Source: Candidatus Saganbacteria bacterium
GTDB taxonomy: Bacteria > Margulisbacteria > WOR-1 > JAKLHX01
Direction: 5' to 3'
DNA length: 32,000 nt
Assembly (NCBI GenBank): GCA_026387835.1
Contig: JAPLKZ010000007.1
Coordinates: 156,218 to 188,217 of the forward strand
Shown piece by piece: positions 488 through 31,059 of this stretch; the first letter of the stretch is position 1, and each line of letters opens with the position of its first letter. The position numbers were made by a program, and so were the translations under genes. Below the pieces are notes generated by a model. The model did not search any database. It worked only from the letters and a program-made list of their open reading frames with translations, and was not told the DNA's origin.

Positions 488-526
488 ACGCCTTAAATCC
501 GGGCCCTCACGGTCCAGTTCCATTTT

Positions 527-535: not shown

Positions 536-542
536 ATATAGA

Positions 543-1487: not shown

Positions 1488-1502
1488 GAGAAGCATTGGA
1501 AA

Positions 1503-2846: not shown

Positions 2847-2856
2847 CGGGTGGACA

Positions 2857-3951: not shown

Positions 3952-3957
3952 CAGCCG

Positions 3958-7361: not shown

Positions 7362-7406
7362 CTTTATAAAGATGTTCGTGATATCCTGAATATATAAAGA
7401 AAAAAT

Positions 7407-8240: not shown

Positions 8241-9184
8241 GCAGGCAGCTTGCTTCGACAAGGGATGCTTACGGAAAAACCCTTGTAGAGCTGGGGAAAC
8301 AGAACAGGGACATAGTGGTCCTTGACGCAGATCTCGCGTGTTCCACAAAGACAGCGTCTTTTTGCAAGGCATTTCCCGACAGGTTCATCAACTGCGGGGT
8401 CGCGGAGCAGGACATGATCTCTACTGCCGCGGGACTTGCGGCCAGCGGAAAGATCGCGTTCGCTTCGACTTTCGCGGTATTCGGGGCGGGCCGGGCGTGG
8501 GATCAGGTCAGGATCTCGGTAGCCTATCCGAGATTGAACGTGAAGATCGTCGTCACGCACGGAGGGATCACCGTGGGCGAGGACGGGGCTACGCATCACG
8601 CGCTTGAAGATATCTGCCTGATGAGGGTGCTGCCCAATATGACGGTAGTAGTCCCGGCTGACGCGGTTGAAACGGAAAAAGCTATCCGTGCTGTCGCTCA
8701 GTTCCACGGCCCGGCATATGTCAGGCTCGGCAGGTCAGCGGTACCGGTAATAAACCAAGATAAAGATTACGATTTCAGGATAGGCAAAAGCGTCGAGTTC
8801 AGAAAAGGAAAAGACGTCACTCTCATAGCTTGCGGGATAATGGTAGCGACCGCTCTTGACGCGGCTGATATCCTCGAAAAAGAAGGGCTCTCGTGCCGGG
8901 TGATAAACATGCATACGATAAAACCGCTTGACAGAGAAGCGGTATTATCGGCCGCCAGGGAGACAGGCGCCATCGTGACAGCCGAGGAACATTCCGTATT
9001 GGGCGGGCTCGGCAGCGCGGTGTGCGAAACGGTCGCCCAGGATTTTCCCGTTCCTGTGATAAGGGTGGGTGTCGCCGATATGTTCACCGAGTCGGGTAGC
9101 CCGTCAGAACTTCTCGAAAAATACGGCCTGATGGCGAAAGACATAATAGATGCGGCAAAAAAAGCGATCTCCAAAAAAAGATAA
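8237..9184 (+). CDS. tkt: Transketolase, C-terminal (pyrimidine-binding) subunit
   Basis: About 315 aa with [44 protein letters not shown] and a [17 protein letters not shown]-type region. The ATG at 8237 overlaps the upstream TGA (ATGA). The ORF track also allows 8228. Confidence 0.9.
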
Positions 9185-10805: not shown

Positions 10806-11185
10806 ACATCAATCTTGTCCTGATCATATGTCTGGTCGCGGTCACCATAGGTATCCTGGTAATGATAGCCTACGTTATAATGCTTCTGTCACATGTCAGG
10901 AGGATCCTCAAGCCGGTGGACAAGATGCTGAACGACCTCAGCGCCGAGTTCCGGCCGCTTTTAAACGATATGTCTGGCATATCGGGTTCGGTCAATAGTT
11001 TTCTCGGCCGGTTTGACAGGATAACGGGGCTGGTGTTCGGGAAGCTCGACATGATGGCTCAGGGTATGGAAAAAGCAAACACTTATGTCCAGCGGTTCGT
11101 GAAAAATCCGAAGGTCGAGATCGAGAGCATAGGCGCCGGCCTCAAAAAAGCTGCTCAGATATTATTTAGAAAGAAAGGAGAGTGA
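10802..11185 (+). CDS. DUF948-like single-pass membrane protein
   Basis: 127 aa with an N-terminal TM helix (LVLIICLVAVTIGILVMIAYVIMLL) followed by helical repeats (KPVDKMLNDLSAEFRPLLNDMSGISGSVNSFLGRFDRITG), typical of DUF948. A GGAGG Shine-Dalgarno sequence is present, and the start overlaps the upstream stop (ATGA). Confidence 0.65.
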   Translation: MNINLVLIICLVAVTIGILVMIAYVIMLLSHVRRILKPVDKMLNDLSAEFRPLLNDMSGISGSVNSFLGRFDRITGLVFGKLDMMAQGMEKANTYVQRFVKNPKVEIESIGAGLKKAAQILFRKKGE

Positions 11186-11188: not shown

Positions 11189-11398
11189 ATGGGTAAGATC
11201 AAAAGTTTCCTCACGGGCGGGATGGTCGGAGCGGTGATCGGGATGCTGTTCGCTCCGCAGAAGGGTGACGAGTCCAGAAAAAAGCTCCAGGAAGAAAGCG
11301 ACAAATGGAGCCCTAAAATAAAAGAGATGGCGGCAGGAGCGAAAGACACCGCGCAAAAGACTATCGATAAAGCCAAGGAAATATTCGGCAAAAAATAA
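11189..11398 (+). CDS. YtxH-domain small protein (second copy)
   Basis: 69 aa with FLTGGMVGAVIGMLFAPQKGDESRKKLQEE. AAAGGAGAG Shine-Dalgarno sequence upstream. Confidence 0.7.
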   Translation: MGKIKSFLTGGMVGAVIGMLFAPQKGDESRKKLQEESDKWSPKIKEMAAGAKDTAQKTIDKAKEIFGKK

Positions 11399-12507
11399 TG
11401 GCTAATCTCGGCCTCGCGGTCGATATCGGCTCGACGAATATCGCCGGTTTCATGATAGACCTTGACAAGAGAAAGGATCATTTTTCTCTGTCGATAAAGA
11501 ACAGCCAGGCTTCCCACGGATCTGACGTGGTAAGCCGGCTGACTTTCGCTTCTCAAAAACAGGACAATGTCAAAGCCCTTCAAAAACAGGTCGTCACCGA
11601 TCTTAACAACCTCATTTTTGCTCTTTCAAAAAGACTTCACATCAACAGAAAGCGGCTCAGCAAAATAATCGTTTCAGGCAACACGATAATGCTGCACCTG
11701 CTGCTTGGTTTGGATATATCAGGATTTCTGAAATACCCGTTCAAGTCGGAGATCAAAGGTCCTGTTGAAATAAATGCCGAGGAAATCGGAGTAGTCGCTT
11801 CAAAAAAAACAAAACTAATAACACTGTCTGTTATTTCACCGTATGTTGGAGCGGATGTCGTTTCCGGGATCTTATACACAGGAATGCATAAGCTTTCCGG
11901 CAGGAAGCTGCTGATAGACCTAGGGACAAACGCTGAAATCGTTCTTGGCAACAAAGACCGTTTGATCGCGGCTTCAGCCGCGGCAGGCCCTGCATTTAAA
12001 GGGAAAGATATCGTTCTTGGATCGGAGATAATATCATCGGTTGCGAGGATGTTAAAAAACGGACTTATAGATAAAAACGGGAATTTAAAACAATCAAAAG
12101 GGAACCCTCTCCCTTTGGGAGAGGGGAAGGGTGAGGGTTGTAAGGTCCTTTCCCAAGACGACATCCGCTCTTTTCAGCTGGCTAAAGGCGCTGTCAGAGC
12201 CGGTATCGAAATATTAATGGAAAAATACGGGATCAACCTTTCCGATGTCAAAAAAATACTGATCGCCGGCCTGTTCGGAAAAAAGATCGACAGGCAGGAT
12301 GCTATTACAACAGGTTTGATCCCTTCAGTCCCAAGAACAACTGTCCGGGCAATAGGCAATTCATCTTTAGGCGGGGCGAAAAAAGTTCTGCTCGACCCCG
12401 GATTACTTGAAGAAGTAAAACAGATCGCAAAAACAGCCGAGCCCGTAGAACTTTCTTTGGAAAAAGGTTACCAGGAAAGATTTATTTTCCGTATAAACTT
12501 TGATTGA
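11398..12507 (+). CDS. Stand-alone ASKHA-fold ATPase of the DUF4445 / RACo C-terminal type. It has no ferredoxin domain.
   Basis: 369 aa with LAVDIGSTNIAGFMIDL, HGSDVVSRL, VSGNTIMLHLLLGL, PYVGADVVSGIL, LLIDLGTNAEIVLG, ASAAAGPAFKG, DDIRSFQLAKGAVRAGIEIL, IAGLFGKKI and IGNSSLGGA. The start overlaps the upstream stop (TAATG). Confidence 0.7.
   Translation: MANLGLAVDIGSTNIAGFMIDLDKRKDHFSLSIKNSQASHGSDVVSRLTFASQKQDNVKALQKQVVTDLNNLIFALSKRLHINRKRLSKIIVSGNTIMLHLLLGLDISGFLKYPFKSEIKGPVEINAEEIGVVASKKTKLITLSVISPYVGADVVSGILYTGMHKLSGRKLLIDLGTNAEIVLGNKDRLIAASAAAGPAFKGKDIVLGSEIISSVARMLKNGLIDKNGNLKQSKGNPLPLGEGKGEGCKVLSQDDIRSFQLAKGAVRAGIEILMEKYGINLSDVKKILIAGLFGKKIDRQDAITTGLIPSVPRTTVRAIGNSSLGGAKKVLLDPGLLEEVKQIAKTAEPVELSLEKGYQERFIFRINFD
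12103..12139. repeat. GC-rich nested palindromic element inside the DUF4445 CDS
   Basis: ccctctccc (12105-12113), ttt, gggagaggg (12117-12125) form a perfect 9-bp hairpin. An outer pair is aaccctc (12103-12109) with gagggtt (12133-12139). The element is translated as NPLPLGEGKGEG. Confidence 0.6.
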
Positions 12508-12523
12508 TCCTCGGGCCCGATCA

Positions 12524-12853
12524 TCACGGTAAGTCGCGGAATTTCTCGGGGAGCTTATTGAGCAGGTTTTCCTTATCAAGTTCGCATATCATAGCCGATC
12601 TGATATTTGTCGAGATAAATCTGCAGCACTCTTTAAATCCCATTATCCATCTGGCCTGAAAACCTGCTGATATTGAATCTTCAAACATAGAAACGATCTT
12701 TTGTTTCCCGAAGCCGTTCTTTGATACCGCGTTGGCAATGCTTGCCAGCTTGATCGCTCTTTGTATGGGATGCTCTATCCTTCTCGAAGCCCTTATTACC
12801 TTCAATATCTTTTTTTTCTGTAATATCTCAAGATCCTTGGTTATGTCTCCCAT
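12524..12853 (-). CDS. Hypothetical 109-aa helical protein, possibly a diverged four-helix-bundle (23S rRNA IVS / Avd-like, TIGR02436-type) protein
   Basis: It is the only minus-strand gene between two long plus-strand arrays. A GGAAGG Shine-Dalgarno sequence lies 7 nt upstream. There is loose similarity by eye to the four-helix-bundle family (DLEILQKK.. and ..QRAIKLASIANAVSKNGFGKQKIVSMFEDSISAGFQA versus the family pattern DLxVWQKA / QLxRAxxSIxxNIAEGxGR..EFxxFLxIAxGSxxE). The assignment is tentative. Confidence 0.55.
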   Translation of the reverse strand: MGDITKDLEILQKKKILKVIRASRRIEHPIQRAIKLASIANAVSKNGFGKQKIVSMFEDSISAGFQARWIMGFKECCRFISTNIRSAMICELDKENLLNKLPEKFRDLP

Positions 12854-12964
12854 GATACCCTTCCTTTAAACAGGGTCCTTGCGGTCTGTTATGCTATCCC
12901 CCCTGTATATATTTATCGTCAAATATTCGGTGGAATTCCGCTTATTATTGCCCATTCCGCCTTG

Positions 12965-12973
12965 TGCTATAAT
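12965..12973 (+). promoter_or_regulatory. Extended -10 promoter element TGcTATAAT upstream of argS
   Basis: tgc (12965-12967) plus tataat (12968-12973). A possible -35 ttattg lies 17 nt upstream. Only 8 nt separate the hexamer from the argS ATG (12982), and no Shine-Dalgarno sequence is present. Confidence 0.5.
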
Positions 12974-12981
12974 CGCTGTAT

Positions 12982-14556
12982 ATGCGGGAAAGAATAATAG
13001 AAATCATAAGGTCTGCAACTGGGATAAACGAAATCGACCTGGAGGTCCCGAAAGAAAAAAAATTCGGGGACTTTTCGACGAATATCGCGATGTCGGCCGC
13101 AAAATTACAGGGTAAAAATTCCAGAGAGACGGCAAACGACTTTAAGAAAAAAATAGAAGATAATGATAAACAAAACCTCATTAAAAAAGTAGAAATTGCC
13201 GGCCCCGGCTTTATTAATCTGTTCATCAATGATGCCGAAATAAATGCCGGGCTTAACGGGATAATCAGAGAAGGCGGCGCGTACGGGGCAAATAATACAG
13301 GCAACGGTAAAAAGGTCCTGATAGAGTTTGTCAGCGCCAATCCGACGGGGCCTCTTCATATAGGCCACGGCAGGTGGGCGGTGATCGGGAGCTCGCTGGC
13401 AGAAATACTAAAGGCGAACGGATACAGCGTAGAAACAGAGTTTTATGTCAACAATATCGGCCGGCAGGTGGATCTTTTGGTGGAATCGGTGCTTTCATCA
13501 GTAAAAGATCTTGAGATTCCTGAGGGAGGGTACGGCGGAAGTTATGTCAAGGATATAGCGGAAGAAATTAAAAAGGAAGCTCCTGAAGATGTCAAACAAT
13601 ATATCTTTGACAGGATCATATGCGGGCAGAAACAGACTCTCCTTGACGCAGGGGTGGAGTTTGACAACTGGTTCTTTGAGAACACGCTCCACGAGAACGG
13701 AGCTGTCGCAAAGACGATAGAGCGTCTGAAGAAGAACGATATGACTTACGAAAAAGACGGTGCCGTCTGGTTCAGGTCAGAGCAGTTCGGGGATGACAAG
13801 GACAGGGTCCTTGTGAGGGAGAACGGGGAGCCTACATACTTTACGGCTGATATAGCGTATCACAGCGATAAGTTCAAAAGAGGCTATGACCTTCTCATCA
13901 ATGTGTGGGGCACCGACCATCACGGTTATGTGAAAAGACTGCAGTCGGCGATGGAAGCCCTGAAGCTGCCCAGCCACAGGCTGGAAATAATAATCGGCCA
14001 GCTTGTGACCCTTTACCGGGGAAAAGAACCTGTCAGGATGTCAAAAAGGACCGGCGAGATGATAACCCTTAAAGAAGTGATAGATGAGATCGGCTGCGAC
14101 GCGGCAAGGTTCTTCCTTCTGATGACGGGGGCGGACACGCACATGGACTTTGACCTGGAGCTGGCCAAGAAAAGATCTCTGGACAATCCGGTATACTATA
14201 TCCAGTACGCTTACGCGAGGATATGCAATATCCTGAAGAACAGCGTTGTCCCGGTCCCTCAACCTGAGCAGGCAGATCTCAGCCTTTTGAAAGAAGAAGC
14301 CGAAAGGGATATCATCCTGAAACTGACGGAGTATCCCAAAGAGCTTGAAGAAGCGGCAAAGGCGATGCAGCCGCACCATCTCGTAAGGTATTTAAGGCAG
14401 GTCGCTTCCCTTTTTCATTCCTATTACCACAAGTGCAGGGTGATATGCGAGGACAAAGAGGTCATGAAAGCAAGGCTTCTTTTGATAGAATCCACTCGAA
14501 TAGTGCTCTTAAACGTGTTAAAATTATTAAAAGTTTCGGCACCTGAAAGGATGTAA
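12982..14556 (+). CDS. argS: Arginine--tRNA ligase
   Basis: 524 aa with an N-terminal Add-1-like region (FGDFSTNIAM), the class I HIGH motif (SANPTGPLHIGHGR), the KMSK-like MSKRTGE, and a C-terminal anticodon-binding region. Confidence 0.93.
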   Translation: MRERIIEIIRSATGINEIDLEVPKEKKFGDFSTNIAMSAAKLQGKNSRETANDFKKKIEDNDKQNLIKKVEIAGPGFINLFINDAEINAGLNGIIREGGAYGANNTGNGKKVLIEFVSANPTGPLHIGHGRWAVIGSSLAEILKANGYSVETEFYVNNIGRQVDLLVESVLSSVKDLEIPEGGYGGSYVKDIAEEIKKEAPEDVKQYIFDRIICGQKQTLLDAGVEFDNWFFENTLHENGAVAKTIERLKKNDMTYEKDGAVWFRSEQFGDDKDRVLVRENGEPTYFTADIAYHSDKFKRGYDLLINVWGTDHHGYVKRLQSAMEALKLPSHRLEIIIGQLVTLYRGKEPVRMSKRTGEMITLKEVIDEIGCDAARFFLLMTGADTHMDFDLELAKKRSLDNPVYYIQYAYARICNILKNSVVPVPQPEQADLSLLKEEAERDIILKLTEYPKELEEAAKAMQPHHLVRYLRQVASLFHSYYHKCRVICEDKEVMKARLLLIESTRIVLLNVLKLLKVSAPERM

Positions 14557-15831: not shown

Positions 15832-17384
15832 GATCGATCTCAACAGCCGAGATGAAACGTATCGATGCCCGGGCCATCAATGACCTCGGCATCCCTCAGA
15901 TCGTCCTGATGGAAAATGCCGGGTTAAGGGTCATGGAGGCGATAAAAGAAAACTACGGCATCCCGGAAAGCGCTGTAGTCGTATGCGGTAAAGGCAGCAA
16001 CGGCGGGGACGCCGCCGTTATAGCAAGGCATCTGTACAACAGCGGTTGTGACGTCTCGGTATTTCTCGCCGGTTCTAAAAGCGATCTAAAAAAAGGCGCA
16101 AGAATAAACTTTCAGGCAGCCAAAAATATCGGCATCAATATTGCCGAGATAACTAAAAAAACACAGCTCGAGATCCTTTATGATGAGCTTCAAAATACCG
16201 GTATAGTGATCGACGGGCTGTTCGGCATAGGCCTCAACAGTGATGTGAAAGGCTTGCACGCCGAGATCATCGATCTGATAAATAATAATAGAAAACGCGG
16301 ATATAAGACCGTTTCGGTCGATATACCTTCGGGGCTTGATTCTGATACCGGCAAAATAAGAGGACGCTGTGTCGAAGCGGATATGACGGTGACGTTCCAC
16401 CTGCCGAAAACAGGGATGTTAAAAAACAGCGGACCGGAAAAGTCAGGGAAAATAGTAGTAGGGGATATTTCCATACCTTATACAGGCCCAAGATCACAGG
16501 ATCTAAGCCTTAAAAAAATCGCAAATCGCAGATCGCAAACCGCAAAAAACAAAAACCTGACAGATATTGTTTTTGTAAAAGAAAGACTTCCGAAGAGAAA
16601 AAAGGATTCAAATAAAGGAGATAACGGACGGGTACTGATAATCGCCGGATCAGAAAACATGGCCGGAGCGGCGATCCTGACGTCAAAGGCCGCTTTAAGG
16701 GCAGGCTCCGGATCAGTATATTTATCTATACCCGGATCGATCCGGTCGAATATAAATAAAGCAGTACCTGAAGCTATAACTTATTTTGACCTTAAGGTCT
16801 CCGAAATTAAAAAGATGAAATTAGATGCGATCGCCGTCGGTCCCGGTATAGGCCAGGGGAAAAGAGAGTTTGTAAAAAAACTTATTAAAGCCGACCTGCC
16901 TTGTCCCATGGTGATCGATGCTGACGGTCTGAACTCGATTGCCGGCGAGCCGAAGGTCCTTCTTTCAAGGACATTCCCGACCGTAATAACTCCGCATCCC
17001 GGAGAAATGGCAAGGCTAATAAAGACGACCGCTTCAAAAATCCAGTCTGACAGGACAGGCAATGCTGTGAGGTTTGCAAGAAAAAACAATGTCATCGTAG
17101 TGTTAAAAGGTTTTAATACTATTATTTCCGACCAGAGAGGCGGATATTTTATTAATCCCACGGGAAACCCCGGAATGGCTTCCGCGGGCGCGGGAGATGT
17201 TCTGACCGGGATCATCGTCTCGTTGATAGGGCAGGGGATGGAGACATTTGATGCGGCCGTATGCGGGGCTTATATACACGGCTTGTCCGGCGACCTGGCG
17301 GCGAAAGAAAAAGGCAGGATAGGTATCATAGCTTCTGATATAATTGAGGCAATAACGGGAGCTTTAAAATGCGTTTCGGCCTGA
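15828..17384 (+). CDS. nnr: Bifunctional NAD(P)H-hydrate repair enzyme (YjeF_N epimerase plus YjeF_C ADP-dependent dehydratase)
   Basis: N-domain: CGKGSNGGDAAVIARHL and VDGLFGIGL. C-domain: KGDNGRVLIIAGSENMAGAAILT, VGPGIGQ, VIDADGL and GNPGMASAGAGDVLTG. ATG 15828 overlaps the acpS TGA (ATGA). The ORF track also allows 15813. Confidence 0.9.
   Translation: MRSISTAEMKRIDARAINDLGIPQIVLMENAGLRVMEAIKENYGIPESAVVVCGKGSNGGDAAVIARHLYNSGCDVSVFLAGSKSDLKKGARINFQAAKNIGINIAEITKKTQLEILYDELQNTGIVIDGLFGIGLNSDVKGLHAEIIDLINNNRKRGYKTVSVDIPSGLDSDTGKIRGRCVEADMTVTFHLPKTGMLKNSGPEKSGKIVVGDISIPYTGPRSQDLSLKKIANRRSQTAKNKNLTDIVFVKERLPKRKKDSNKGDNGRVLIIAGSENMAGAAILTSKAALRAGSGSVYLSIPGSIRSNINKAVPEAITYFDLKVSEIKKMKLDAIAVGPGIGQGKREFVKKLIKADLPCPMVIDADGLNSIAGEPKVLLSRTFPTVITPHPGEMARLIKTTASKIQSDRTGNAVRFARKNNVIVVLKGFNTIISDQRGGYFINPTGNPGMASAGAGDVLTGIIVSLIGQGMETFDAAVCGAYIHGLSGDLAAKEKGRIGIIASDIIEAITGALKCVSA
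16517..16544. repeat. Tandem heptanucleotide repeat (AATCGCA-like, 4 copies) in the nnr interdomain linker
   Basis: aatcgca / aatcgca / gatcgca / aaccgca at 16517-16544, decaying into an A-rich tail. It encodes part of KKIANRRSQTAKNKN between the two Nnr domains. Confidence 0.7.
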
Positions 17385-18169
17385 GCATTAAAAAAGAAGA
17401 AAAATATTTCGATTATGTCGGCAAGGAGACTCTCCTGTTCTTCAGGGATTTTGGCGGCATCTGCATCCTTCTATGGCAGGCGCTGACGAGGTCTTTCACT
17501 AAAAAGCTGAATATAAAAAATGTGTATGATCAGCTGGTCAGAATAGGCAACGATTCGATCCCCGTTTCACTCATAACGGCATTTTTTGTCGGCATGGTAT
17601 TTGCTGTGCAGATCGCTACGGAGTTCACAAAGTTCGGCGCAGGCAGGATGGTAGGCGCAGTGATGGCCCTGGCAATCGCAAGGGAACTGGCCCCGATCTT
17701 GACGGCAGTGGTCCTGGCGGGGCGCGTGGGCGCGGCGATCGCCGCGGAGATCGGCACGATGAACGTCACTCAGCAGATCGATGCGATGAGAGCCCTGGGA
17801 ACGAATCCTATAAACTATTTGGTAGTGCCAAGGTTCCTGGCGTCGGTGATAATGTTCCCTGTTCTTACGCTTTTTGCCGACCTGATTGGCTTCATCGGAT
17901 CTTTTCTTGTCTCTGTATTTCTCGCAAATATCAATCCGTACAGCTATTTAGAAGCTACTGAACAATTCCTTAAGACGGGAGATATCCTGGCAGGGCTGTT
18001 GAAAGCTGTCGTGTTCGGTGCTCTCGTCTCGATCATCGCCTGCCAGATGGGGCTCAATTCAAAGAACGGGGCAAAAGGCGTGGGAGAAGCCACCACGGCT
18101 TCGGTCGTGATCTCTCTGATAACGATATTTGTGGCGAACTATTTCATGTCAGTGGCATTGTTCAAATGA
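17369..18169 (+). CDS. mlaE: MlaE-family lipid ABC transporter permease
   Basis: 266 aa, polytopic, with IGNDSIPVSLITAFFVGMVFAVQ, GRVGAAIAAEIGTMNVTQQIDAMRALG and an EATTASVV-type C-terminus. It is followed by the ATPase and the MCE protein. Confidence 0.88.
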   Translation: MRFGLSIKKEEKYFDYVGKETLLFFRDFGGICILLWQALTRSFTKKLNIKNVYDQLVRIGNDSIPVSLITAFFVGMVFAVQIATEFTKFGAGRMVGAVMALAIARELAPILTAVVLAGRVGAAIAAEIGTMNVTQQIDAMRALGTNPINYLVVPRFLASVIMFPVLTLFADLIGFIGSFLVSVFLANINPYSYLEATEQFLKTGDILAGLLKAVVFGALVSIIACQMGLNSKNGAKGVGEATTASVVISLITIFVANYFMSVALFK

Positions 18170-18894
18170 TAAAAATAACATCTCTGACAAAAACATTCGG
18201 TAATAAAAAAGTTCTTGACGATGTCAGCCTTGAGATACCCGACGGCCAGAAGCTGGCAGTTATAGGCCCGTCAGGCTGCGGCAAAAGCACTTTGCTCAGG
18301 TTGTTGATAGGTCTCACCGGACCGACAAGAGGATCAGTGAATATTAACGGCAAAGAGATAACCGTGATGAGCGAAGACAGGCTGATGAAGATCAGGGCCG
18401 GCATCGGCATGGTATTCCAAAGTTCGGCTCTGTTTGATTCGATGAGCGTGTACGAGAACATCGCTTTCGGGCTCAGACAGAACTCCGGGCTCCCCGAGGA
18501 CCTTATCAGAAAAAAAGTAGCGGAAAAACTTGAGATGGTAGAGCTCCCGCATATAGAAGGACTTATGCCCGGGGAACTGTCCGGCGGGATGCAGAAAAGG
18601 GTAAGCTTCGCGAGGGCGATCGCAAATGACCCTTCAATAATCCTTTATGATGAACCGACTACAGGGCTTGACCCCGTGACTTCCACTGTGATCGAGGACC
18701 TGATCAACAAACTGACAAGAGAGCTTAAAGCTACGGGTGTATTGGTGACCCATCAGTTGTCTACGATATTTAGGACAAGCGACAGGATAGTGATGATGAA
18801 CGAAAGTAAATTCATCGAGGCCGGGTCGGTAGAGCAGGCAATAAATTCATCTAACCCGATAGTAAAAAACTTCATTAAAGGAGGTCTTCCGTGA
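18166..18894 (+). CDS. mlaF: MlaF-type ABC transporter ATP-binding protein
   Basis: 242 aa with Walker A GPSGCGKST, signature LSGGMQKRVSFARA, and Walker B ILYDEPTTGLD. The start overlaps the mlaE stop (ATGA). Confidence 0.9.
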   Translation: MIKITSLTKTFGNKKVLDDVSLEIPDGQKLAVIGPSGCGKSTLLRLLIGLTGPTRGSVNINGKEITVMSEDRLMKIRAGIGMVFQSSALFDSMSVYENIAFGLRQNSGLPEDLIRKKVAEKLEMVELPHIEGLMPGELSGGMQKRVSFARAIANDPSIILYDEPTTGLDPVTSTVIEDLINKLTRELKATGVLVTHQLSTIFRTSDRIVMMNESKFIEAGSVEQAINSSNPIVKNFIKGGLP

Positions 18895-20006
18895 TGTCAA
18901 ATCAAATAAAAGTGGGGATAGTCGTCTCGATCGCTATTTTGCTTTTAGGGGCGATCGTGACATGGAAAAGCGCCATACTGATGCGTTTTACCGGCTATGA
19001 GATGATCGGTTCGTTTGAAAACATAGAGGGGCTTACGACCGGTTCGGAGATCAGGTACAGGGGTTTTAAGGTGGGTAAAGTGATGCGGATCGATCCGGGC
19101 ACTGAGGACATAAGGATCTATTGTAATATCGATAACAGCATCAAATTTCCGGCGGATTCGACCTTGCGCGTGGCATTTGACGGGCTTGTCGGGATGAAAT
19201 TCCTAGAGGTCAGGCCGGGACATTCTCAAGCGCTGTACAAGCCTTCACAGGTATTATACGGGCAGAAGACCTCAGGGATCGTTGATTTTGTCGATATGGG
19301 CACGCAGAACCTTATAGAAACAAAAAAAATCCTGATTTCGATAGCAAATATTGTCGAAAGGCCGGAAATACAACAATCATTCGTAAATGCCGTCTTTAAC
19401 ATCGAAAAAGCCACTGAAGAGATAAACCGTCTGACTAAGGAGCTGATCGTGCTGGCTAACTCGATCAACAATATCGTTGCGGACAAGAGTTTTCAAAATA
19501 ACGTGAAAGGCATCGCAAATTCAACGGACAAGACACTTTCATCCGCAAATAAATTCTTTGAAGGTGTCGGGAACATGCAGATAAAGCCGAGCGGTGATCT
19601 GCTGTTCGGAGGCCTGTCTAATCAGATAAAAGGAAACCTTGATTTTTCGACCGGAGGCGACACGCATGTTTTATTGGCAATGGGGGAGGGCGGGCCTACC
19701 AGAAATCTCTCGATGCTTGATGTGCAGGTCGCGAGCACCGTTGCAAAGAATCTGGGCTTAAGAATAGGAATGATCAATACTTATCTCGGCGGCGGTGTCG
19801 ATATGAGGTTCAATGACAGGTTCATGCTGAGCGGCGACATCTATGACTTCAACAATCCGAAACCTAATTATCCCAAGCTCAGACTTACAGGAGAATACAA
19901 GTTCGTGGATTATGTGAACCTCCTGTTCCAGGCGGATGATTTTCTTAACGGTCGCGCGAATGCCAATTATTCTCTGGGTGTGAGGATAAAGAGCAGCGTT
20001 GATTAA
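18894..20006 (+). CDS. mlaD: MCE-domain protein (long MlaD) with helical and beta-rich C-terminal extension
   Basis: N-terminal TM helix (VGIVVSIAILLLGAIV). MCE domain (GSFENIEGLTTGSEIRYRGFKVGKVMRIDPG...LVGMKFLEVRPG). A roughly 100-aa helical segment, then about 145 aa with alternating-polarity strands (RLTGEYKFVDYVNLLFQADDF, NANYSLGVRIKS). An AAAGGAGG Shine-Dalgarno sequence is present. GTG 18891 is an alternative start. Confidence 0.85.
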   Translation: MSNQIKVGIVVSIAILLLGAIVTWKSAILMRFTGYEMIGSFENIEGLTTGSEIRYRGFKVGKVMRIDPGTEDIRIYCNIDNSIKFPADSTLRVAFDGLVGMKFLEVRPGHSQALYKPSQVLYGQKTSGIVDFVDMGTQNLIETKKILISIANIVERPEIQQSFVNAVFNIEKATEEINRLTKELIVLANSINNIVADKSFQNNVKGIANSTDKTLSSANKFFEGVGNMQIKPSGDLLFGGLSNQIKGNLDFSTGGDTHVLLAMGEGGPTRNLSMLDVQVASTVAKNLGLRIGMINTYLGGGVDMRFNDRFMLSGDIYDFNNPKPNYPKLRLTGEYKFVDYVNLLFQADDFLNGRANANYSLGVRIKSSVD

Positions 20007-20056
20007 TGTCAATTGAACAACTGCTTTACGGTCAATAACCAAGGTAAGATACTTAT

Positions 20057-20470
20057 ATGTCAGGACAAATGGATATAACAACAGGTTTACTCTATAAAGG
20101 CGACCAAAAATGGCTGGATTACTCATTGAGTGCTTACTCGGATTTCTGTAATAATTTTATAATATTGAACACATCTAATAAGAATTCCACGATCACAGCG
20201 CGAACGGCCAATAGCTGGCGACAAAAAGGATTAAATGTTTCATTAGTCTCAACAGCCGGCGTCAATAAAGAGCCAAAGGCATATCTTTATAAAATGGTGA
20301 AAAAAGAACGGACAAAATGGATGTTGTTCTTGAACGAAGGAGAGATACTAGGAGAGGAAGCAAAAGACCAGATGCCTGTGTTATTGGATGATAATTCTGC
20401 TCAGGGTTTCAGATTTTTTGTGAGGACATTATGGGATTCTAAAAAAGAGTTCAGGTGCGATAAGGGGTAG
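20057..20470 (+). CDS. N-terminal piece of a catalytically degenerate GT2-like domain
   Basis: 137 aa. It matches the pattern of the downstream GT2 domain but has lost the acidic residues: FIILNTSNKNST versus the usual VVDTGSTD-type motif, and WMLFLNEGEIL versus WLDADD. Confidence 0.45.
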   Translation: MSGQMDITTGLLYKGDQKWLDYSLSAYSDFCNNFIILNTSNKNSTITARTANSWRQKGLNVSLVSTAGVNKEPKAYLYKMVKKERTKWMLFLNEGEILGEEAKDQMPVLLDDNSAQGFRFFVRTLWDSKKEFRCDKG

Positions 20471-20749
20471 ATAAGGACCAGAGCTGGGATATTCAGAGAT
20501 ACGATTGCGGGTAAGGAACAGGATGTTCTTACAGCCAGATTAATCAGGAATAACAGGCCTGATGAGGGGCTGGGAGATGCAGGGCAGTGTGAATTCGGGG
20601 GTTATATTCCGGCATACATTGATAAGATCTCTATTAAGAACGTATATATTAGATTAATAGAAGATATATTCGAAACAAATGCAAAAAGAGTCAGATTCGT
20701 TTCAAAGGTAAAACAATATGATAGAAAAGCAGCAAAAGAATATCAGCGC

Positions 20750-21877
20750 ATGCTCAGGAACAATTCTAAAGAAAAGACTTTAGGGCTGATGATAGAGGAT
20801 GCAAAGACAGAAGCTACGGTATCGCTGTGCATGATTGTAAAAGATGAATATAAAGAGCTTGAAAAATGTCTTGAAAGTGCAAAGGGCATGTACGACGAAC
20901 TTGTGGTCGTATGGAATGGAAATGATCCGAAAACAATGGATGTTATGGAAGAAAATTGTGCCAAGGTGATTAAGTACAGATGGAAAGACGATTTTTCAGA
21001 TGCAAGAAATCTTTCATTAAAGAATGCTAGCTGTAAGCGGGTACTCTGGCTTGATGCCGACGATGTAGTATCGAAAGACTGCGGTGCCGATCTGAAAGAA
21101 TTTCTGAGATACTGTGAAAGTGCGGCACTCCATCTGCCGGTCGAGATGTCGGGCAATTCCGGACAAAAAGCCCATTCAATAAGGGTAATAAAAAATGGCT
21201 ACAAGGTAAAGTTTAAGAACAAAGTGCATGAAGTATTAAAATTCCCAAAAAGGTATCTCGTATCATATTTTCCACTGAAGATAATACATGAAGGCTATAC
21301 GGATAGCGTGGCGCTTGAAAATAAGGAGCAAAGGAATGAAAAAATACTAAAAAGGATGCTGAAAGACAAGCACGACAACAGCAACGCACTGTTTTATTTA
21401 GGGATGAATGAAACAAATATCAAATCAAGTACAAAATACATTAATAAATATTTAAAACTCAACAGGGGAACAAATGACCTTAAAGAGATGGCACTTACGA
21501 AACTAGCTGCAAATTATCTCAAGAACGGAGATCTTAAAAAAGCCATAAAGTTCGGGTATAAAGCTTTGGAATATAATAATCTGCTGGCAGCGGCATATAT
21601 CATTATCGGGAACGCTTTGGAGATGGAATATAAATACCATCAGGCGGTAACTATGTATGAAACGGCCAAAATATCAAAGCCAAATGAAACGGCAATGTTT
21701 CTGAGCGATGTAAATGATTATACGTATACCCCAAGGCTCAATCTCGGAAAATTGTATATTAAAATGGGGGATCTTGAAAAAGCAAAAGAAAATTTGACCG
21801 AAGCCTTGAAATACAGGCCTGGCGATGCCGAATGCACTCAGATCTTATCCAACAGATTGATTTTCCCTGCAAGTTAA
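20750..21877 (+). CDS. Family-2 glycosyltransferase with C-terminal TPR repeats
   Basis: 375 aa with VSLCMIVKDEYKELEKCLES, DELVVVWNG, WKDDFSDARN, a DxD motif in VLWLDADDVV, and IIHEGY. The C-terminal half has TPR-like repeats (ALFYLGM, LAANYLKNGDLKKAIKFGYKALEYN, LGKLYIKMGDLEKAKENLTEALKYRP). The true start is uncertain (see the TAG finding). Confidence 0.75.
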   Translation: MLRNNSKEKTLGLMIEDAKTEATVSLCMIVKDEYKELEKCLESAKGMYDELVVVWNGNDPKTMDVMEENCAKVIKYRWKDDFSDARNLSLKNASCKRVLWLDADDVVSKDCGADLKEFLRYCESAALHLPVEMSGNSGQKAHSIRVIKNGYKVKFKNKVHEVLKFPKRYLVSYFPLKIIHEGYTDSVALENKEQRNEKILKRMLKDKHDNSNALFYLGMNETNIKSSTKYINKYLKLNRGTNDLKEMALTKLAANYLKNGDLKKAIKFGYKALEYNNLLAAAYIIIGNALEMEYKYHQAVTMYETAKISKPNETAMFLSDVNDYTYTPRLNLGKLYIKMGDLEKAKENLTEALKYRPGDAECTQILSNRLIFPAS

Positions 21878-22239
21878 AAGTTATTGATATCATTGATACA
21901 AATATGCATCAAATCGATAAATAACGTGCCTATAAAAGCGTTTAAATATGGCTTTTTTGAGTCATTTAGCCTCTATTTCGTCCTATTTCTGCATAATCTT
22001 TTAAAAAGGGCCTAAATCAGCCATGTTCTCCGCTGCCTGAGTATGGGCCGAAAGACCTGCAGCCATACATTATATAGATATCCACAAGGGCAAACCATAA
22101 GCGTCGCATAATATATCTTATGTCAAGTTATGGTAAGGGGGGTATGTGTATGGATTATTTGTGGAACCGTGTTTTTTATGATAATTATCAGTGCAAGTTA
22201 TTTGATAGTGGCAACGATAGATAATTGAGGAAAGAAAAA

Positions 22240-25038: not shown

Positions 25039-26157
25039 ATGAATAGATATGAATTAAGAAACCCAACAGGGCATAATATAGTATTGCCCCAGCATTTTAA
25101 TCCCGGAGCAAGTGTCCGTCTGTCGATGTTGATCTCAGATATTGACCGCACAGCAATCAGCACAGGAATATCAAGGATACAGGGTTCCAACCGTGTTCAA
25201 TTAGTAAGAAGCCTGCTTATGGGTAAAGATGTTCATCTTATCAGCGGCAGCCCTTACCACCCTCAATATGCAGGGCTTGATTTTTCAAGGGAATCTATTC
25301 AAAGAAGGGTCGCTGAACCGGTCTTCAATAGTCTTCAAAGACTTAGGTCCATTGAAATGATGCCGCATCTCAAAATACATTATATTTCCGGGAAAGGGAA
25401 AGTGACTTTTACCGGGTCCGGAACAGAGCAAATGACCGAAGATAAAGAAAATCTTATTCCAGATGATATTAACTTCAAGATCGCGGTTGCTTTAGCGGGC
25501 GGGTTCTGTGCAAGGGTTAAGGGAATATGCTTGAATGGGTTCATGAGAGGTGATCTTAAAAGGTCTTTGGATTCTTCAGTTGATTTAAAAGCAATTGAAG
25601 CTGTTGTCAGGAAGGCTACTGGGATCGAAGCTGTGAGGTTCTGGCCCTTTGGAAGCGAATTGGCATTAATTTTCCATAGCCCAAAAGCTCCGAACGGTGA
25701 TGGTGTTGATAAATTTGCGAGATCAGTATTAGAGGCGGAAGGCATTATACTCCCTGAGGATAATTACTCTTTTTCAGGCGGAGGCGCTTATGCCAAAGTT
25801 GCCAGGATTAAAAAGAGAGATGTTATTGAAAAAGAACTGGCCGCCTTGAATCCAAACGGTGCTGTCCTTGGGCTTGGCGATTCAAATGCGGATGATTTCC
25901 TGCTTTTAGACCCGGATAGTTTTTTATTCTTCCCGGTCTATTTAGGGGCCGAAAAGGATATGGAACAGCATCCCCAGATATTAACTGCCTTGGACCGTTT
26001 TGGAAAAGACAGGATGGAGGCAAGAGGATTCGGCCGCACAGTCAAAACCTTCCTCGACGCCGAAGAGGCCGGTAAAACATACTATGACCTGCCGATCTTT
26101 TTAAAAGGCCAATCAATAAATCAACTTATCCAAATGGGGTTCAGGCTTCAAAACTAA
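25039..26157 (+). CDS. HAD-superfamily (IIB-like) phosphatase with an enlarged cap region
   Basis: 372 aa from the ATG at 25039, with an AGAGGG Shine-Dalgarno sequence 7 nt upstream. HAD motif I MLISDIDRTAI (DxDxT), motif II HLISGSP, and motif IV LGLGDSNADDFLL. The 5' part of the 474-aa track ORF is antisense to purB and is not counted. Confidence 0.6.
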   Translation: MNRYELRNPTGHNIVLPQHFNPGASVRLSMLISDIDRTAISTGISRIQGSNRVQLVRSLLMGKDVHLISGSPYHPQYAGLDFSRESIQRRVAEPVFNSLQRLRSIEMMPHLKIHYISGKGKVTFTGSGTEQMTEDKENLIPDDINFKIAVALAGGFCARVKGICLNGFMRGDLKRSLDSSVDLKAIEAVVRKATGIEAVRFWPFGSELALIFHSPKAPNGDGVDKFARSVLEAEGIILPEDNYSFSGGGAYAKVARIKKRDVIEKELAALNPNGAVLGLGDSNADDFLLLDPDSFLFFPVYLGAEKDMEQHPQILTALDRFGKDRMEARGFGRTVKTFLDAEEAGKTYYDLPIFLKGQSINQLIQMGFRLQN

Positions 26158-27247: not shown

Positions 27248-29056
27248 TTAATCCTTAAAACTTGATCCCAGCAACCTGTGCTTTATTGCATGTCCTATGA
27301 ATTTTACGAGATTTGCCTGTCTTTTTATTCTTTTGGGTTCTTTAGTCAGGCGGTAAAGCCATTCCAGCCCGATCTTGCGGACTATTTCAGGAGCTCTTTT
27401 TGCCCTGCCTGATATTACATCAAGGCTCCCTCCGATGACCATGCTGACGGGTATCCCGAGCTCTTTATAATGTTTTGCCAGCCATTTTTCCTGCCTTGGA
27501 GCGCCGAGACCGACGAAAAGTATATCAGGTCTTAATGCTTTTATCCCGCGGATTACGTCCTTCTCCTCATTATCCCTGAAATAACCGTGAAGCGTTCCGA
27601 CCACATTGACGCCTTGAAGTTTCTTTACGGCCTTTTCAGCGACTCCCGGAGCAGATCCGAGTAAAAAGACTTTATATCCTTTTTCTTTTGAAAGTTCCAA
27701 AAGTCTTATCATGAGGTCTATTCCTGCGACCCTTTCAATAAGCGGCATATTAAGAAGTTTTGCCGCTCCGACGACGCCGATACCGTCTGGAATGCCGATA
27801 TCGGCCGAGTTGATTATTTCACGCAGCTCGGTATCTTTCTGGGCCGCCATGATTATTTCAGGATTAGTGGAGAGTACCAGGCGGGGTTTTCTGCCGCGGA
27901 TATATCCTTCGATCATTTCGGCCGCGGCTTCGAGGCCGATATTGTTGACCTTAACCCCAAAAAGATAGATCTCTTTCATAGTATCGGCGAACTCGAAGAA
28001 AGCGCTGAAATTCAATTCTGCTCTCTTTATAAGTATCTTGGCATTTTCTTTTATTAATGAGACATAATGGTCTCTATTTTCGTAGACCTCGTCAAAAGCC
28101 CTTATCATATCATCGGCGGAGAAATTGAGCCCCAGTAACGGGCAGTCGATCTCTTTCATCAGATTATCGACCTTAGGGTCATAGTCTATTCCGATCATTG
28201 GAACATGTGAAACCGAAGCAAATATCAGGCAGTGAAGCCTCATGCCTATCAGGACGTCAAGTTTTGATATCAGGCACATCAGGTCTTTTGCCTCGTGCAC
28301 CTGCGCCAGGATCCCTGGCCTGTGCTTCATAAGGGAAGCGACGTTTGCGGATTCATCGGCATCAACGGGCTGCTGGAAAGGGATGAAAATGACATTAGCA
28401 TGATGTTTTTCAACTATACGATCAAGCGCTGAAGCGAGCCTCATGTACATGTCAGGAGACCTGTGTTTGAGCGGCCTTATGCAGACCCCGACCAAAGGCT
28501 TGCGGCCAAGGTCGAGATTTTCTTTCTTTAAGAGTTCTTCGATGCTGCCTTTTTCAAGGAGGAACGCCGGGTCGGCTGCGATCAGCATCAAAGGTCTGTT
28601 CACCCGGTCTTTCTGAAGGGCAACAAAAGAACCGAAATCCCTTACCGTGATAAGGGTGACATTGTTCAGAATATTCCTGACAAGCCATTTGTTGACGGTT
28701 CTTTTCACGGGGCCGTAACCTTGCCCCATGACCGCGACCTTCTTCTTTAATAACAGACCGAGCCAGATGATCCCGAGATAATAAGGGATGGACAAAGGCC
28801 CTGTAATGTCCTGCAGCAGTCCTCCCCCTCCGCTGATAAGCGTATCGCAGGACATTATCTCTTTGACAACCTGAAAAACGGAGAACCTTCTTATAGATCT
28901 TACATTGAACTTTTTAGAGGTCGCTCTCGGGTCGGCGGACAGAACAGTGGCCCTTATTTTTGGATTGCTCTTCTTTAGACGGGTGATGATAGATTCAAGA
29001 ATTGCTTCATCGCCGGTATTCCCTGTGCCGTAATAACCGGATATGACTACCTTCAT
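27248..29056 (-). CDS. csaB: Fusion protein: polysaccharide pyruvyl transferase CsaB (N-terminal, about aa 1-350) plus a WecB/TagA/CpsF (GT26) glycosyltransferase (C-terminal, about aa 360-600)
   Basis: 602 aa. N-terminal part: MKVVISGYYGTGNTGDEAILESI, MGQGYGP, RDFGS and SHVPMIGIDYDPKV. C-terminal part: LFGVKVNNIGLEAAAEMI, LSTNPEIIMAAQKD, ADIGIPDGIGVVGAAKLL, FLLGSAPGVAEKA, LFVGLGAPRQEKW and LEWLYRL. Confidence 0.85.
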   Translation of the reverse strand: MKVVISGYYGTGNTGDEAILESIITRLKKSNPKIRATVLSADPRATSKKFNVRSIRRFSVFQVVKEIMSCDTLISGGGGLLQDITGPLSIPYYLGIIWLGLLLKKKVAVMGQGYGPVKRTVNKWLVRNILNNVTLITVRDFGSFVALQKDRVNRPLMLIAADPAFLLEKGSIEELLKKENLDLGRKPLVGVCIRPLKHRSPDMYMRLASALDRIVEKHHANVIFIPFQQPVDADESANVASLMKHRPGILAQVHEAKDLMCLISKLDVLIGMRLHCLIFASVSHVPMIGIDYDPKVDNLMKEIDCPLLGLNFSADDMIRAFDEVYENRDHYVSLIKENAKILIKRAELNFSAFFEFADTMKEIYLFGVKVNNIGLEAAAEMIEGYIRGRKPRLVLSTNPEIIMAAQKDTELREIINSADIGIPDGIGVVGAAKLLNMPLIERVAGIDLMIRLLELSKEKGYKVFLLGSAPGVAEKAVKKLQGVNVVGTLHGYFRDNEEKDVIRGIKALRPDILFVGLGAPRQEKWLAKHYKELGIPVSMVIGGSLDVISGRAKRAPEIVRKIGLEWLYRLTKEPKRIKRQANLVKFIGHAIKHRLLGSSFKD

Positions 29057-31059
29057 ATTTTAATAAGCTTTTTTGCCGCCAGGTATAAGCAGTAATAGAT
29101 CAGTCCGAATAAGAGTCCGAGTATTAAGCCATATGCCGACCTTATAAGCGATATCAAAAGCGGCGAATGCACATGGCAGAAAGTATTGACCGTTGAGACA
29201 GGTGCGACCATGCCGATCACAAGGAAAGGCCACAGCCATTTTTTGCCGCCCGACAAAAAGTAGATGGCTCCCAGGAACAGCGCCGGATATCCTATGAGGA
29301 ACTCTTTGGTCCGCGGCCTTATCAGCATTATTTTCTCAAGGAATGTCCTCGCGAGTTTTTCGGTGTCCAATATGCCTATGCCGAAATTGCCGCTGCGCAA
29401 TATGTAGAGAGCGGCGACGCCCAAAAGCACTGCGGCTACAATGACGGCCAGTACAGTTATCGGTGAATTGAGCCACTCCGTCAGGTCATCTTTCAGGCTT
29501 TTTATCTCATCCTTTTCGATGACCGCGCAATAGAATGCGACCAACAGGACCGGCAGAATGAAAGCCAGCTTTATCCCGGTAAATTGCTGGGAGCCCACCA
29601 TGAAAATCGTGTCCGCCAAGAAGCCTACTATCAGGACAGCTCCCGCCATGCTTATGCAATAAACTGAGATCACCATGAGAACGGCTTTTGCGAACGGCGG
29701 GAAAAACTGTTTATCCATCTGCTTTATCTTAAACACGGAAGTGATGGCGAGTGTCGGAAAGACCACCGCGCAGCACAAAGCGGCCATTTTCTGAAAAAAC
29801 ACTGCCCCCCCTATCGCATTAAAAGCCAGCGGTTTTATTACCGAAACTGCCAGGACGAGCAATATAAACCACAGAGGGACCTGCCATAACACAGAAAGCA
29901 AAAGGATGATCCCCGCGCTTAGACCCAGCGTCAACAATACCATGGAAGGAGCCTTTAGACTTATCAATCCCGGCCTGTCTGCCTTTCCGATGGAATGAGA
30001 TGTTTTAAGCATCAAGGTCCGTATGGATCTCACATAATCAGTGTTCGTTGAAGTCAGGTTCTTCCCGGCATCGGGGATATAGAAAGGTCTTATGAAAAGA
30101 AGCCTTACCCCTCTTTCGTTCACGGCGCGGTCAAAACGGTCTATTGCCTCCTGTTTTATCATCTTTTTAAGCATCTCGTCCTCGGAGATGCTGTGGACCC
30201 TGATAATATCGGTCCTCAGGTATTTTAAAAGTTCGCTGTCCCCTTTTTGCTCGGCCATCTCGATATAGCCGTAATTGATACCTGATGAAATAATAGCTTT
30301 TGCGACCCCGGGGATGTTGTTCTTATAGCCGGCAACCTCTTCGCCGTCAAAAATCACCGTAGTGAAAGGCCCTTCGGAACGAAGGATCTCCAGTTTTTTT
30401 TGGACGATCTTGCCGTTAAGCCGGAAATTGTTCTTCAGGCGCGGAAGGACAAAAAAGCCGCGGTCAATTACAAATTTGAAAGCCTGCGGTGATATTCCAA
30501 GCCCCAGTTCCATCAGGTCTTCTTCATCATCGGTTATCTCAAGCTCATCAGGAACTGTCAGACTTACATTCCTTTTTCCGAGGACGATCTCAAGCTGGGA
30601 CTTTATCCGGTTTAAAACATCCATGTCTTCAGTGATAGCGTAGCTCAGCGAAGGATTTGGTTTGGCCTCTCTTTTTGGTGTCTTTAAAAGCGGATTACTT
30701 ATACTTTTTGCGTAAGATGAAAGTCTGCCTTTTATCTTATAGGTCTTGCTTATATTCCGGAGAGTGTCCTGTTCATAGCCGGTAAGCCATGAAAGCTTTC
30801 CCTGAAGTTCAAGAGTTTCAAGAGTATCTTCGGCCAGCGCTATCGATGTTATACCGGCGTCTTTAAACTGTCTTAGAACCGCATCTACAGGGAGGCCGTC
30901 GCGCAGGGAGATCTTTTTGATGTCACTGAGGTCCATAGCGAGTTCAACCGAGGTGTTCTTTGCCTCGACAACTATCCTTTTGTAGCCCTCTATAGCACCG
31001 GCGGCGACACCAATAGCAAGTATTGCGATAAGAAGATATAAAATTATTTTGTTCTTCAT
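29053..31059 (-). CDS. Large polytopic membrane protein of unknown function. By recollection it resembles the DUF5693 family that neighbours csaB/tagA genes.
   Basis: 668 aa. N-terminal anchor helix (LYLLIAILAIGVAAGAI), a roughly 350-aa soluble domain, then about 9-10 hydrophobic helices (for example MVLLTLGLSAGIILLLSVLW, VLMVISVYCISMAGAVLIVGFLA, VLAVIVAAVLLGVAALYIL, GLILGLLFGLIYYCLYLA). Its stop overlaps the csaB-tagA start (ATGA at 29053-29056). Confidence 0.6.
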   Translation of the reverse strand: MKNKIILYLLIAILAIGVAAGAIEGYKRIVVEAKNTSVELAMDLSDIKKISLRDGLPVDAVLRQFKDAGITSIALAEDTLETLELQGKLSWLTGYEQDTLRNISKTYKIKGRLSSYAKSISNPLLKTPKREAKPNPSLSYAITEDMDVLNRIKSQLEIVLGKRNVSLTVPDELEITDDEEDLMELGLGISPQAFKFVIDRGFFVLPRLKNNFRLNGKIVQKKLEILRSEGPFTTVIFDGEEVAGYKNNIPGVAKAIISSGINYGYIEMAEQKGDSELLKYLRTDIIRVHSISEDEMLKKMIKQEAIDRFDRAVNERGVRLLFIRPFYIPDAGKNLTSTNTDYVRSIRTLMLKTSHSIGKADRPGLISLKAPSMVLLTLGLSAGIILLLSVLWQVPLWFILLVLAVSVIKPLAFNAIGGAVFFQKMAALCCAVVFPTLAITSVFKIKQMDKQFFPPFAKAVLMVISVYCISMAGAVLIVGFLADTIFMVGSQQFTGIKLAFILPVLLVAFYCAVIEKDEIKSLKDDLTEWLNSPITVLAVIVAAVLLGVAALYILRSGNFGIGILDTEKLARTFLEKIMLIRPRTKEFLIGYPALFLGAIYFLSGGKKWLWPFLVIGMVAPVSTVNTFCHVHSPLLISLIRSAYGLILGLLFGLIYYCLYLAAKKLIKI

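Follow-up and report, generated by a model that had tools for sequence, protein, structure and literature searches.

Does a diderm candidate phylum make, as one polypeptide, two enzymes that Paenibacillus alvei makes separately, and if so, what would the combined protein do? This question is raised by a stretch of 32,000 nucleotides (nt) from Candidatus Saganbacteria (GenBank assembly GCA_026387835.1, contig JAPLKZ010000007.1, positions 156,218 to 188,217 of the forward strand; hereafter the window), for which an initial annotation, made from the letters alone, described a natural fusion of the pyruvyltransferase CsaB with a TagA-type N-acetylmannosamine (ManNAc) transferase. The observation is confirmed: a single reading frame of the window encodes both enzymes at full length, CsaB preceding TagA. 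We consider it probable that the product is a genuine bifunctional, peripheral-membrane enzyme of the pathway that leads to pyruvylated secondary cell wall polymer (SCWP). The gene and its parts are located as follows.

27248..29056, minus strand: csaB::tagA fusion, a single open reading frame (ORF) of 602 amino acids (aa) with an ATG start, from the ORF list
28121..29053, minus strand: CsaB ketal-pyruvyltransferase domain, aa 2-312 (TIGR03609, PF04230 and structural model; Y9, R139, R194, R273-L-H275, K295)
27977..28075, minus strand: long connecting helix between the catalytic domains, aa 328-360 (AlphaFold2 model)
27278..27976, minus strand: TagA-type glycosyltransferase of family GT26, aa 361-593 (7mpk alignment and Foldseek; N398, D424, Y492, Q522)
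27269..27388, minus strand: TagA C-terminal tail, aa ~557-596, basic and amphipathic (E565, R569, R576, R579)

The Pfam families of the two enzymes, PS_pyruv_trans and Glyco_tran_WecG, both match, the former in the N-terminal and the latter in the C-terminal half, and no frameshift or stop codon interrupts the reading frame, including the region near aa 350-360 where a possible split had been envisaged. The 602-aa product is 100% identical to an NCBI protein from a Ca. Saganbacteria metagenome-assembled genome (MAG), encoded on a 249-kb contig, and at least three separate sequencing runs yielded independently assembled contigs that carry the identical ORF (11 contigs were read). In relatives from unrelated projects, at 42-52% identity, length and architecture are the same. 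No transmembrane segment is predicted anywhere in the 602 residues, and the protein would, like TagA, be a peripheral membrane enzyme.

In the CsaB half, PS_pyruv_trans (PF04230) matches aa 13-294 (E = 1.9e-41, 143.3 bits against a cut-off of 25.3), and the NCBIfam CsaB equivalog TIGR03609 is passed over aa 2-312 (286.7 bits against a cut-off of 213.1), while WcaK models match the first ~50-65 residues of the protein only. Mutagenesis of P. alvei CsaB has identified R148, H308 and K328 as residues that bind phosphoenolpyruvate (PEP), with R306 implicated by docking, and Y14 and F16 as acceptor-binding residues (PMC10435577). In a mapping that was pieced together via several Paenibacillus homologues instead of the P. 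alvei sequence, and is thus partly indirect (N-terminal residues through three Paenibacillus species, C-terminal residues through three others), R148, R306, H308 and K328 correspond to R139, R273, H275 and K295 of the fusion, all of which are present, and Y14 corresponds to Y9; the loop residue R207 would correspond to R194. Among 22 fused homologues, R139, R194, H275 and K295 are invariant and R273 is conserved in at least 90%. Queried with the protein and with a profile of the 22 sequences, the PDB gave TagA structures only and no match to the CsaB half, and no CsaB structure was found in the PDB searches run; the fold of this half was therefore judged from a model. In the AlphaFold2 model, built on the 22 fused homologues (mean predicted local distance difference test score, pLDDT, 90.4), it is GT-B-like, with two Rossmann-like alpha/beta/alpha halves and a template modelling (TM) score of ~0.65 to GT-B enzymes. 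The yeast pyruvyltransferase Pvg1p, described with the same GT-B-like double-Rossmann fold, was absent from the top 50 structural matches.

The C-terminal half is matched by Glyco_tran_WecG (PF03808) over aa 418-580 (E = 2.2e-59, 200.5 bits against a cut-off of 27.4) and by the GT26 model TIGR00696 (wecG_tagA_cpsF; 156.9 bits against a cut-off of 69), and weaker matches to WecG, EpsA and WcaK models were also seen. It aligns over the full length of Thermoanaerobacter italicus TagA, tail included (7mpk residues 2-238, E = 4e-60), and in a Foldseek comparison the TagA half of the model superimposes on 7mpk, 5wb4 and 5wfg with TM scores of 0.93-0.94 and root-mean-square deviations (rmsd) of 1.2-1.4 A. 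In TagA, D65 and the tail arginines R214, R221 and R224 matter experimentally, N39, Y137 and Q167 contact UDP-ManNAc, and E210 is a pore residue (PMC8784642). By a scripted mapping, D65, N39, Y137 and Q167 correspond to D424, N398, Y492 and Q522 of the fusion, and E210, R214, R221 and R224 to E565, R569, R576 and R579; among the 22 fused homologues, all of these except Y492 stand in invariant columns. By analogy, the tail of the fusion is presumed to be a membrane-association and active-site lid element.

What would such a protein do? In P. alvei, where the two enzymes are separate, TagA makes lipid-PP-GlcNAc-ManNAc, where GlcNAc is N-acetylglucosamine, and CsaB then pyruvylates the product with PEP (PMC6030368); the order of steps assumed by the initial annotation agrees with this biochemistry. 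As both active sites are intact, the fusion most likely carries out both steps at the cytoplasmic face of the membrane. The GT26 domain would transfer ManNAc from UDP-ManNAc to undecaprenyl-PP-GlcNAc, employing D424 as general base together with the arginines of the C-terminal tail, and the CsaB domain would then use PEP to add a 4,6-ketal pyruvate to the ManNAc, producing the epitope that S-layer homology (SLH) domains bind. The gain from fusion would lie in equal amounts of the two activities, kept together at the membrane, and not in a structural channel.

The fusion is by no means confined to the window. Both Pfam domains are carried by at least 110 of the best 120 clusters at 90% identity, with sources that include Saganbacteria, Margulisiibacteriota, Caldicellulosiruptor/Anaerocellum, Ca. 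Aquicultor/Actinomycetota, MAGs of Firmicutes (Bacillota), and Caldisericia, and when 1.84 billion representatives at 50% identity were searched exhaustively, at least 39 of the top 150 matches covered the whole protein in a single alignment. A fusion of 612 aa is encoded in the finished genome of C. hydrothermalis 108 (CP002219.1). Other arrangements exist as well: the reverse order TagA-CsaB (P0111), triple fusions with a GT4 domain, either GT4-TagA-CsaB (P0104, P0115, P0206) or GT4-CsaB-TagA (P0071, P0180), and TagA fused to a TagO-like PF00953 enzyme, which would catalyse the preceding step (P0269, P0283). Two further candidates for TagA-CsaB fusions, P0183 and P0217, were rejected, being TagA-TagA tandems, the latter with a C-terminal STAS domain. 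The database survey proposed by the initial annotation thus showed an architecture that is common in public genomes and filed under ordinary names in NCBI and UniRef. Its Rosetta-stone argument is strengthened: the genes are separate and adjacent elsewhere, and are fused in both orders, with GT4 domains and as TagO-TagA, so that functional coupling of CsaB and TagA is well supported.

How the fusion may have arisen can be read from gene order. We surveyed the 80 best loci (L001-L080) among GTDB species representatives and classified them by reading frame and by a check for stop codons, since separate genes that lie side by side also give rise to tblastn matches over residues 1-594. With this check, csaB::tagA is a single ORF in 6/80 loci; csaB is followed by an adjacent but separate tagA in 29/80; tagA lies upstream of a separate csaB in 11/80 (within 200 nt in six of these); and only one of the two genes is present in the fetched stretch in 34/80. 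Both genes lie on the same strand within 700 nt in 41 loci, where they are separate in 35/41 and fused in 6/41. Most of the 29 csaB-then-tagA pairs have a gap of 0-15 nt or an overlap of 1-8 nt, and in four loci (L007, L010, L012 and L013) the genes are in frame, parted by a single stop codon with the start codon of tagA immediately after it (junction at ~11100-11160). Such a junction is the direct precursor state of a fusion.

In P. alvei the cluster orf1-csaB-tagA-tagO is co-transcribed, beside the SLH genes slhA and spaA, and the P. sinensis locus (DUF5693-csaB-tagA-tagO-SLH-SLH) reproduces this arrangement. The fusion would have arisen when the stop codon between neighbouring csaB and tagA, in a conserved operon DUF5693-csaB-tagA, was lost. 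The initial annotation had stressed that the later enzyme is placed N-terminally; we see in this no design feature, because csaB already comes first in the operon csaB-tagA(-tagO) and the fusion has kept this order. In a rough neighbour-joining tree of the CsaB halves, which is only indicative, fused forms fall into at least three clades and are interleaved with unfused ones. Fused and unfused states also coexist within Saganbacteria, where the WOR-1 genome RIFCSPHIGHO2_01_FULL_53_15 has a standalone tagA of 242 aa (L022, 1341-2069, plus strand), after which come purC, the gene of a small membrane protein, ispG and purB, that is, in the syntenic tagA...ispG-purB position, with the csaB half absent from the available 1.3 kb upstream. 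Recurrent fusion and fission would be the simplest reading of these sequences. Promoter and terminator scans around the operon of the window gave results at chance level, and no tRNA or Rfam features were found.

The neighbourhoods of related loci also bear on the role of the polymer. By a regular expression for SLH domains, followed by a purpose-built SLH hidden Markov model (HMM), 35 SLH proteins were found beside csaB/tagA in 17 related loci. In Ca. Aquicultor (L004), six SLH proteins are encoded within 10 kb upstream of the fused gene (23-8778), with partner domains that include CAP, NAGPA and carboxypeptidase-regulatory-like domains, and a gene for a MurJ-like flippase lies directly downstream of the fused gene (11787-13373), with no DUF5693. 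In the diderm Saganbacteria host, the product of the fusion would most likely dock SLH-bearing, OmpM-type outer-membrane proteins to the wall. OmpM has been reported for Saganbacteria, CsaB and SLH domains are found together in the majority of diderm Terrabacteria, and CsaB-dependent anchoring of OmpM/Slp is documented in Thermus and cyanobacteria (bioRxiv 10.1101/2021.05.31.446380); a tethering role is by analogy plausible for this genome and is not a new concept. The window itself holds genes that fit a diderm envelope:

17369..20006, plus strand: mlaE-mlaF-mlaD (Pfam MlaE, E = 1.6e-78; ABC_tran; MlaD, E = 1.6e-14)

The initial annotation had named two diderm markers, of which the mlaEFD genes are confirmed by Pfam and a beta-barrel-like fragment has sub-threshold matches only. 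The fragment, an ORF of 138 aa (9-425, plus strand), lies just upstream of mraY; the window probably starts within its gene and so retains the C-terminal part; DUF5777 reaches 18.6 bits against a threshold of 23.1 and OMP_b-brl 17.6 against 28.7. Bam and lipopolysaccharide genes were not seen in the window.

Several observations weigh against assigning the protein to SLH-binding SCWP. No SLH protein was found, by the regular expression or the HMM, in the 32-kb window or in ~4.5 kb of additional native contig, the only parts of this genome that could be searched, and genes for tagO, mnaA and a LytR-CpsA-Psr (LCP) ligase were not found in the window. The TarA equivalog NF041710 matches aa 360-594 with 194.1 bits, under its strict cut-off of 350, and because this cut-off is missed we file the C-terminal half as a GT26 TagA-like enzyme and not as a proven TarA orthologue. 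GT26 moreover holds transferases of N-acetylmannosaminuronic acid (ManNAcA) and other sugars, and specificity for ManNAc is predicted here from the contact residues and from the fused CsaB. Where P. alvei CsaB has F16 at the acceptor site, the fusion has T11, in a mapping that is itself indirect; the bifunctionality of fused proteins is argued by analogy with the biochemistry of separate enzymes; and the relative orientation of the domains is less certain than the domains themselves (predicted TM score, pTM, 0.66).

These points have to be set against what each alternative would require. One in-frame stop codon alone parts csaB and tagA in many genomes, so that a single base error could mimic a fusion, and the ORF might be an artefact of assembly or sequencing in which a lost stop codon or a frameshift had merged two genes. 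This is excluded for practical purposes and has a negligible probability, because independent assemblies and the NCBI MAG contain the very same ORF, dozens of diverged relatives from independent projects (42-52% identity) are uninterrupted too, and finished genomes of cultured strains carry the fusion as well. A degenerate half is a general possibility for fused genes, and T11 in place of F16 could be taken as its mark; nevertheless, an effectively monofunctional protein with one remnant domain is very improbable, given that both halves lie well over their family thresholds, keep all the tested catalytic and substrate-binding residues, are modelled with high confidence and are conserved in homologues down to ~34% identity, and that the F16A and F16R variants of P. 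alvei CsaB remain active (PMC10435577). Rather more can be said for a role with a different glycan (a capsule or exopolysaccharide repeat, for instance, or a polymer that contains ManNAcA), unrelated to SLH anchoring or outer-membrane tethering: both GT26 and PF04230 include enzymes of capsule, exopolysaccharide and enterobacterial common antigen pathways, the WecG, EpsA and WcaK matches and the missed TarA cut-off point in the same direction, and an SLH gene was not found in the window. Yet the S-layer-type CsaB equivalog is passed, the WcaK models reach only the first residues of the protein, SLH proteins and tagO recur in homologous loci and the fusion keeps N39 and Q167, which contact UDP-ManNAc in TagA, and we regard this alternative as quite unlikely.

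A bifunctional SCWP enzyme could, finally, pass the lipid-linked disaccharide from the TagA to the CsaB active site along a defined inter-domain path, and the initial annotation had held that the fusion implies such channelling. The two domains do catalyse consecutive steps, a confidently predicted helix joins them with almost no spacer ahead of the first TagA strand, and the fusion is recurrent in several lineages. The claim is not borne out, however, because the linker is variable, both domain orders occur and unfused forms are widespread, adjacent separate genes being at least as common as fused ones. No part of the alignment is less conserved than the joining segment (columns ~400-512), whose length differs by tens of residues among homologues; insertion of a GT4 domain is seen on either side; the two genes stay separate in many lineages; and the model is at its weakest in the inter-domain geometry. 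The intermediate is also membrane-anchored, so that co-localisation at the membrane would already account for a benefit. We therefore consider a structural channel unlikely. Co-localisation and a fixed stoichiometry are shown by the evidence, a channel is not, and a 1:1 ratio of two activities co-localised on a membrane-bound substrate is a sufficient explanation of the benefit.

The fusion is then an ordinary and widespread joining of operon neighbours, between two well-understood enzymes, and changes no concept. It does confirm, from independent genomic data, that ManNAc transfer by TagA-type enzymes and pyruvylation by CsaB form one functional unit, across monoderm and diderm Terrabacteria and beyond Paenibacillus and Bacillus. 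No published account of a natural CsaB-TagA fusion was found in the literature searched, and searches on CsaB of Caldicellulosiruptor gave nothing relevant. A sequence-space review of 2019 restricted its networks to proteins of 250-600 aa, which would exclude many fused proteins, and this upper bound in the main survey of its kind may be one reason why no account was found. Structural and kinetic study of saccharide pyruvylation could become easier with a single protein that has both activities, and the presence of the fusion in cultured Caldicellulosiruptor strains offers a practical handle.

The linkage most worth following is with the gene directly upstream of the fusion, which belongs to the DUF5693 family.

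29053..31059, minus strand: DUF5693 gene, 668 aa (Pfam PF18949, E = 7e-148), directly upstream of the fusion gene
29053..29056, minus strand: ATGA overlap of the DUF5693 stop and the fusion start (read as ...AAA ATA TGA / ATG AAG GTA...)

From this overlap, DUF5693 is predicted to be translationally coupled to the fusion gene. Its model (pLDDT 83.7) has an N-terminal transmembrane helix, a beta/alpha domain (aa ~37-352) and ~10 transmembrane helices (aa ~370-667), and invariant charged motifs include R581-P-R583-x-K585-E586-F587 and H629. No solved structure matches the model, and no paper mentioning the family was found in the literature searched. In 39 of the 62 csaB-bearing loci, the gene directly upstream of csaB, on the same strand and usually at 0-140 nt, encodes a DUF5693 homologue, a linkage that spans Bacillota (including Negativicutes) and Margulisiibacteriota, whether csaB is fused or not. 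DUF5693 would probably act in a later membrane step for the same polymer, such as export, polymerisation or attachment, and is a candidate for the later stages of SCWP assembly. The MurJ-like flippase that follows the fused gene of Aquicultor, where DUF5693 is absent, is a single and weak hint, by analogy, at an export-type role. Counting against a firm assignment, DUF5693 is missing beside the fused gene in Aquicultor and Caldicellulosiruptor, and it is therefore not obligatory. We put forward only tentatively, and with more doubt than belief, the larger proposal that DUF5693 is the missing membrane component (flippase, polymerase or ligase) of pyruvylated-SCWP assembly, forming a module with CsaB(-TagA) that feeds it the finished lipid-linked unit, and that this module would be a core part of the ancestral Terrabacteria machinery for wall anchoring and outer-membrane tethering.

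On the other side of these genes, tagA or the fused gene has as its immediate downstream neighbour, in Caldicellulosiruptor and in a Clostridia MAG, a gene of the YitT family (YitT_membrane + DUF2179), and YitT-family or similar ORFs were seen at L084 10840-11691, L002 11775-12674 and L019 4603-5448. A Thermoanaerobacterium ORF in the same position has a very similar N-terminus, by N-terminal comparison only. The YitT-family protein is a possible further member of the operon. Split transketolase genes, for N- and C-terminal subunits, are present in the window (7407-9184, plus strand) and shortly downstream of csaB/tagA in Caldicellulosiruptor (L084, 11802-13593), and in two Bacillota MAG loci the ORFs after tagA resemble transketolase by size and N-terminal sequence only (L002, 12675-14431; L009, 11846-13659); the proximity is probably coincidental.

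Elsewhere in the window, ispG and purB flank a 372-aa ORF of the opposite strand (25039-26157, plus strand). Independent assemblies call it as a gene; it matches nothing in Pfam or NCBIfam and is not conserved in position in L001 or L022, the former having instead a 622-aa protein with EF-hand-like repeats. The G+C content falls to 0.37-0.38 in 20001-22000, against ~0.47 elsewhere; this region, possibly a horizontally acquired island, carries the gene of a GT2 glycosyltransferase that ends in TPR repeats at its C-terminus (20750-21877) and, at 20057-20470, a 137-aa ORF that matches no family. At 11398-12507 (plus strand), a 369-aa protein has the middle and C-terminal ASKHA domains of RACo, the reductive activator of corrinoid proteins; an N-terminal ferredoxin domain was not detected in it.

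Compared with known systems, the nearest relatives of the fusion are those in the databases, such as the proteins of C. hydrothermalis 108 (612 aa), Ca. Aquicultor (581 aa) and Margulisiibacteriota (597 aa), which share its architecture, length and conserved residues at 37-52% identity but differ in hosts and neighbourhoods, those of Caldicellulosiruptor and Aquicultor being without an upstream DUF5693. The TagO-TagA, TagA-CsaB and GT4 triple fusions likewise join consecutive cytoplasmic-face steps on an undecaprenyl-PP-linked intermediate, with a different domain order and different partner enzymes. The OmpM/Slp tethering systems of Thermus, cyanobacteria and other diderm Terrabacteria share the CsaB family, and OmpM is reported in the Saganbacteria lineage; the window is unlike them in that a partner SLH/OmpM protein was not seen, and the fusion is unmentioned in bioRxiv 10.1101/2021.05.31.446380.

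As a single enzyme, TagA/TarA of T. italicus (5WB4, 5WFG, 7MPK, 7N41) is the closest counterpart of the C-terminal half, with 42% identity over the whole enzyme, a TM score of 0.94 and an rmsd of 1.3 A. Common to the two are the catalytic Asp, the contacts to UDP-ManNAc and a C-terminal tail rich in Arg, whereas the fusion has a 360-residue N-terminal CsaB domain and stays under the TarA equivalog cut-off, and its likely product leads to pyruvylated SCWP instead of the linkage unit of wall teichoic acid. The CsaB/TagA operon of P. alvei (PMC6030368, PMC10435577) contains the same two enzyme families, with csaB before tagA and with the PEP-binding and catalytic residues conserved, and in seven loci of Paenibacillus and Chengkuizengella DUF5693 lies upstream, as it does at the fusion of the window. 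The window differs in that the tagO and SLH genes are not adjacent and in that a single polypeptide, in a diderm candidate phylum, takes the place of the two enzymes of a monoderm Firmicute.

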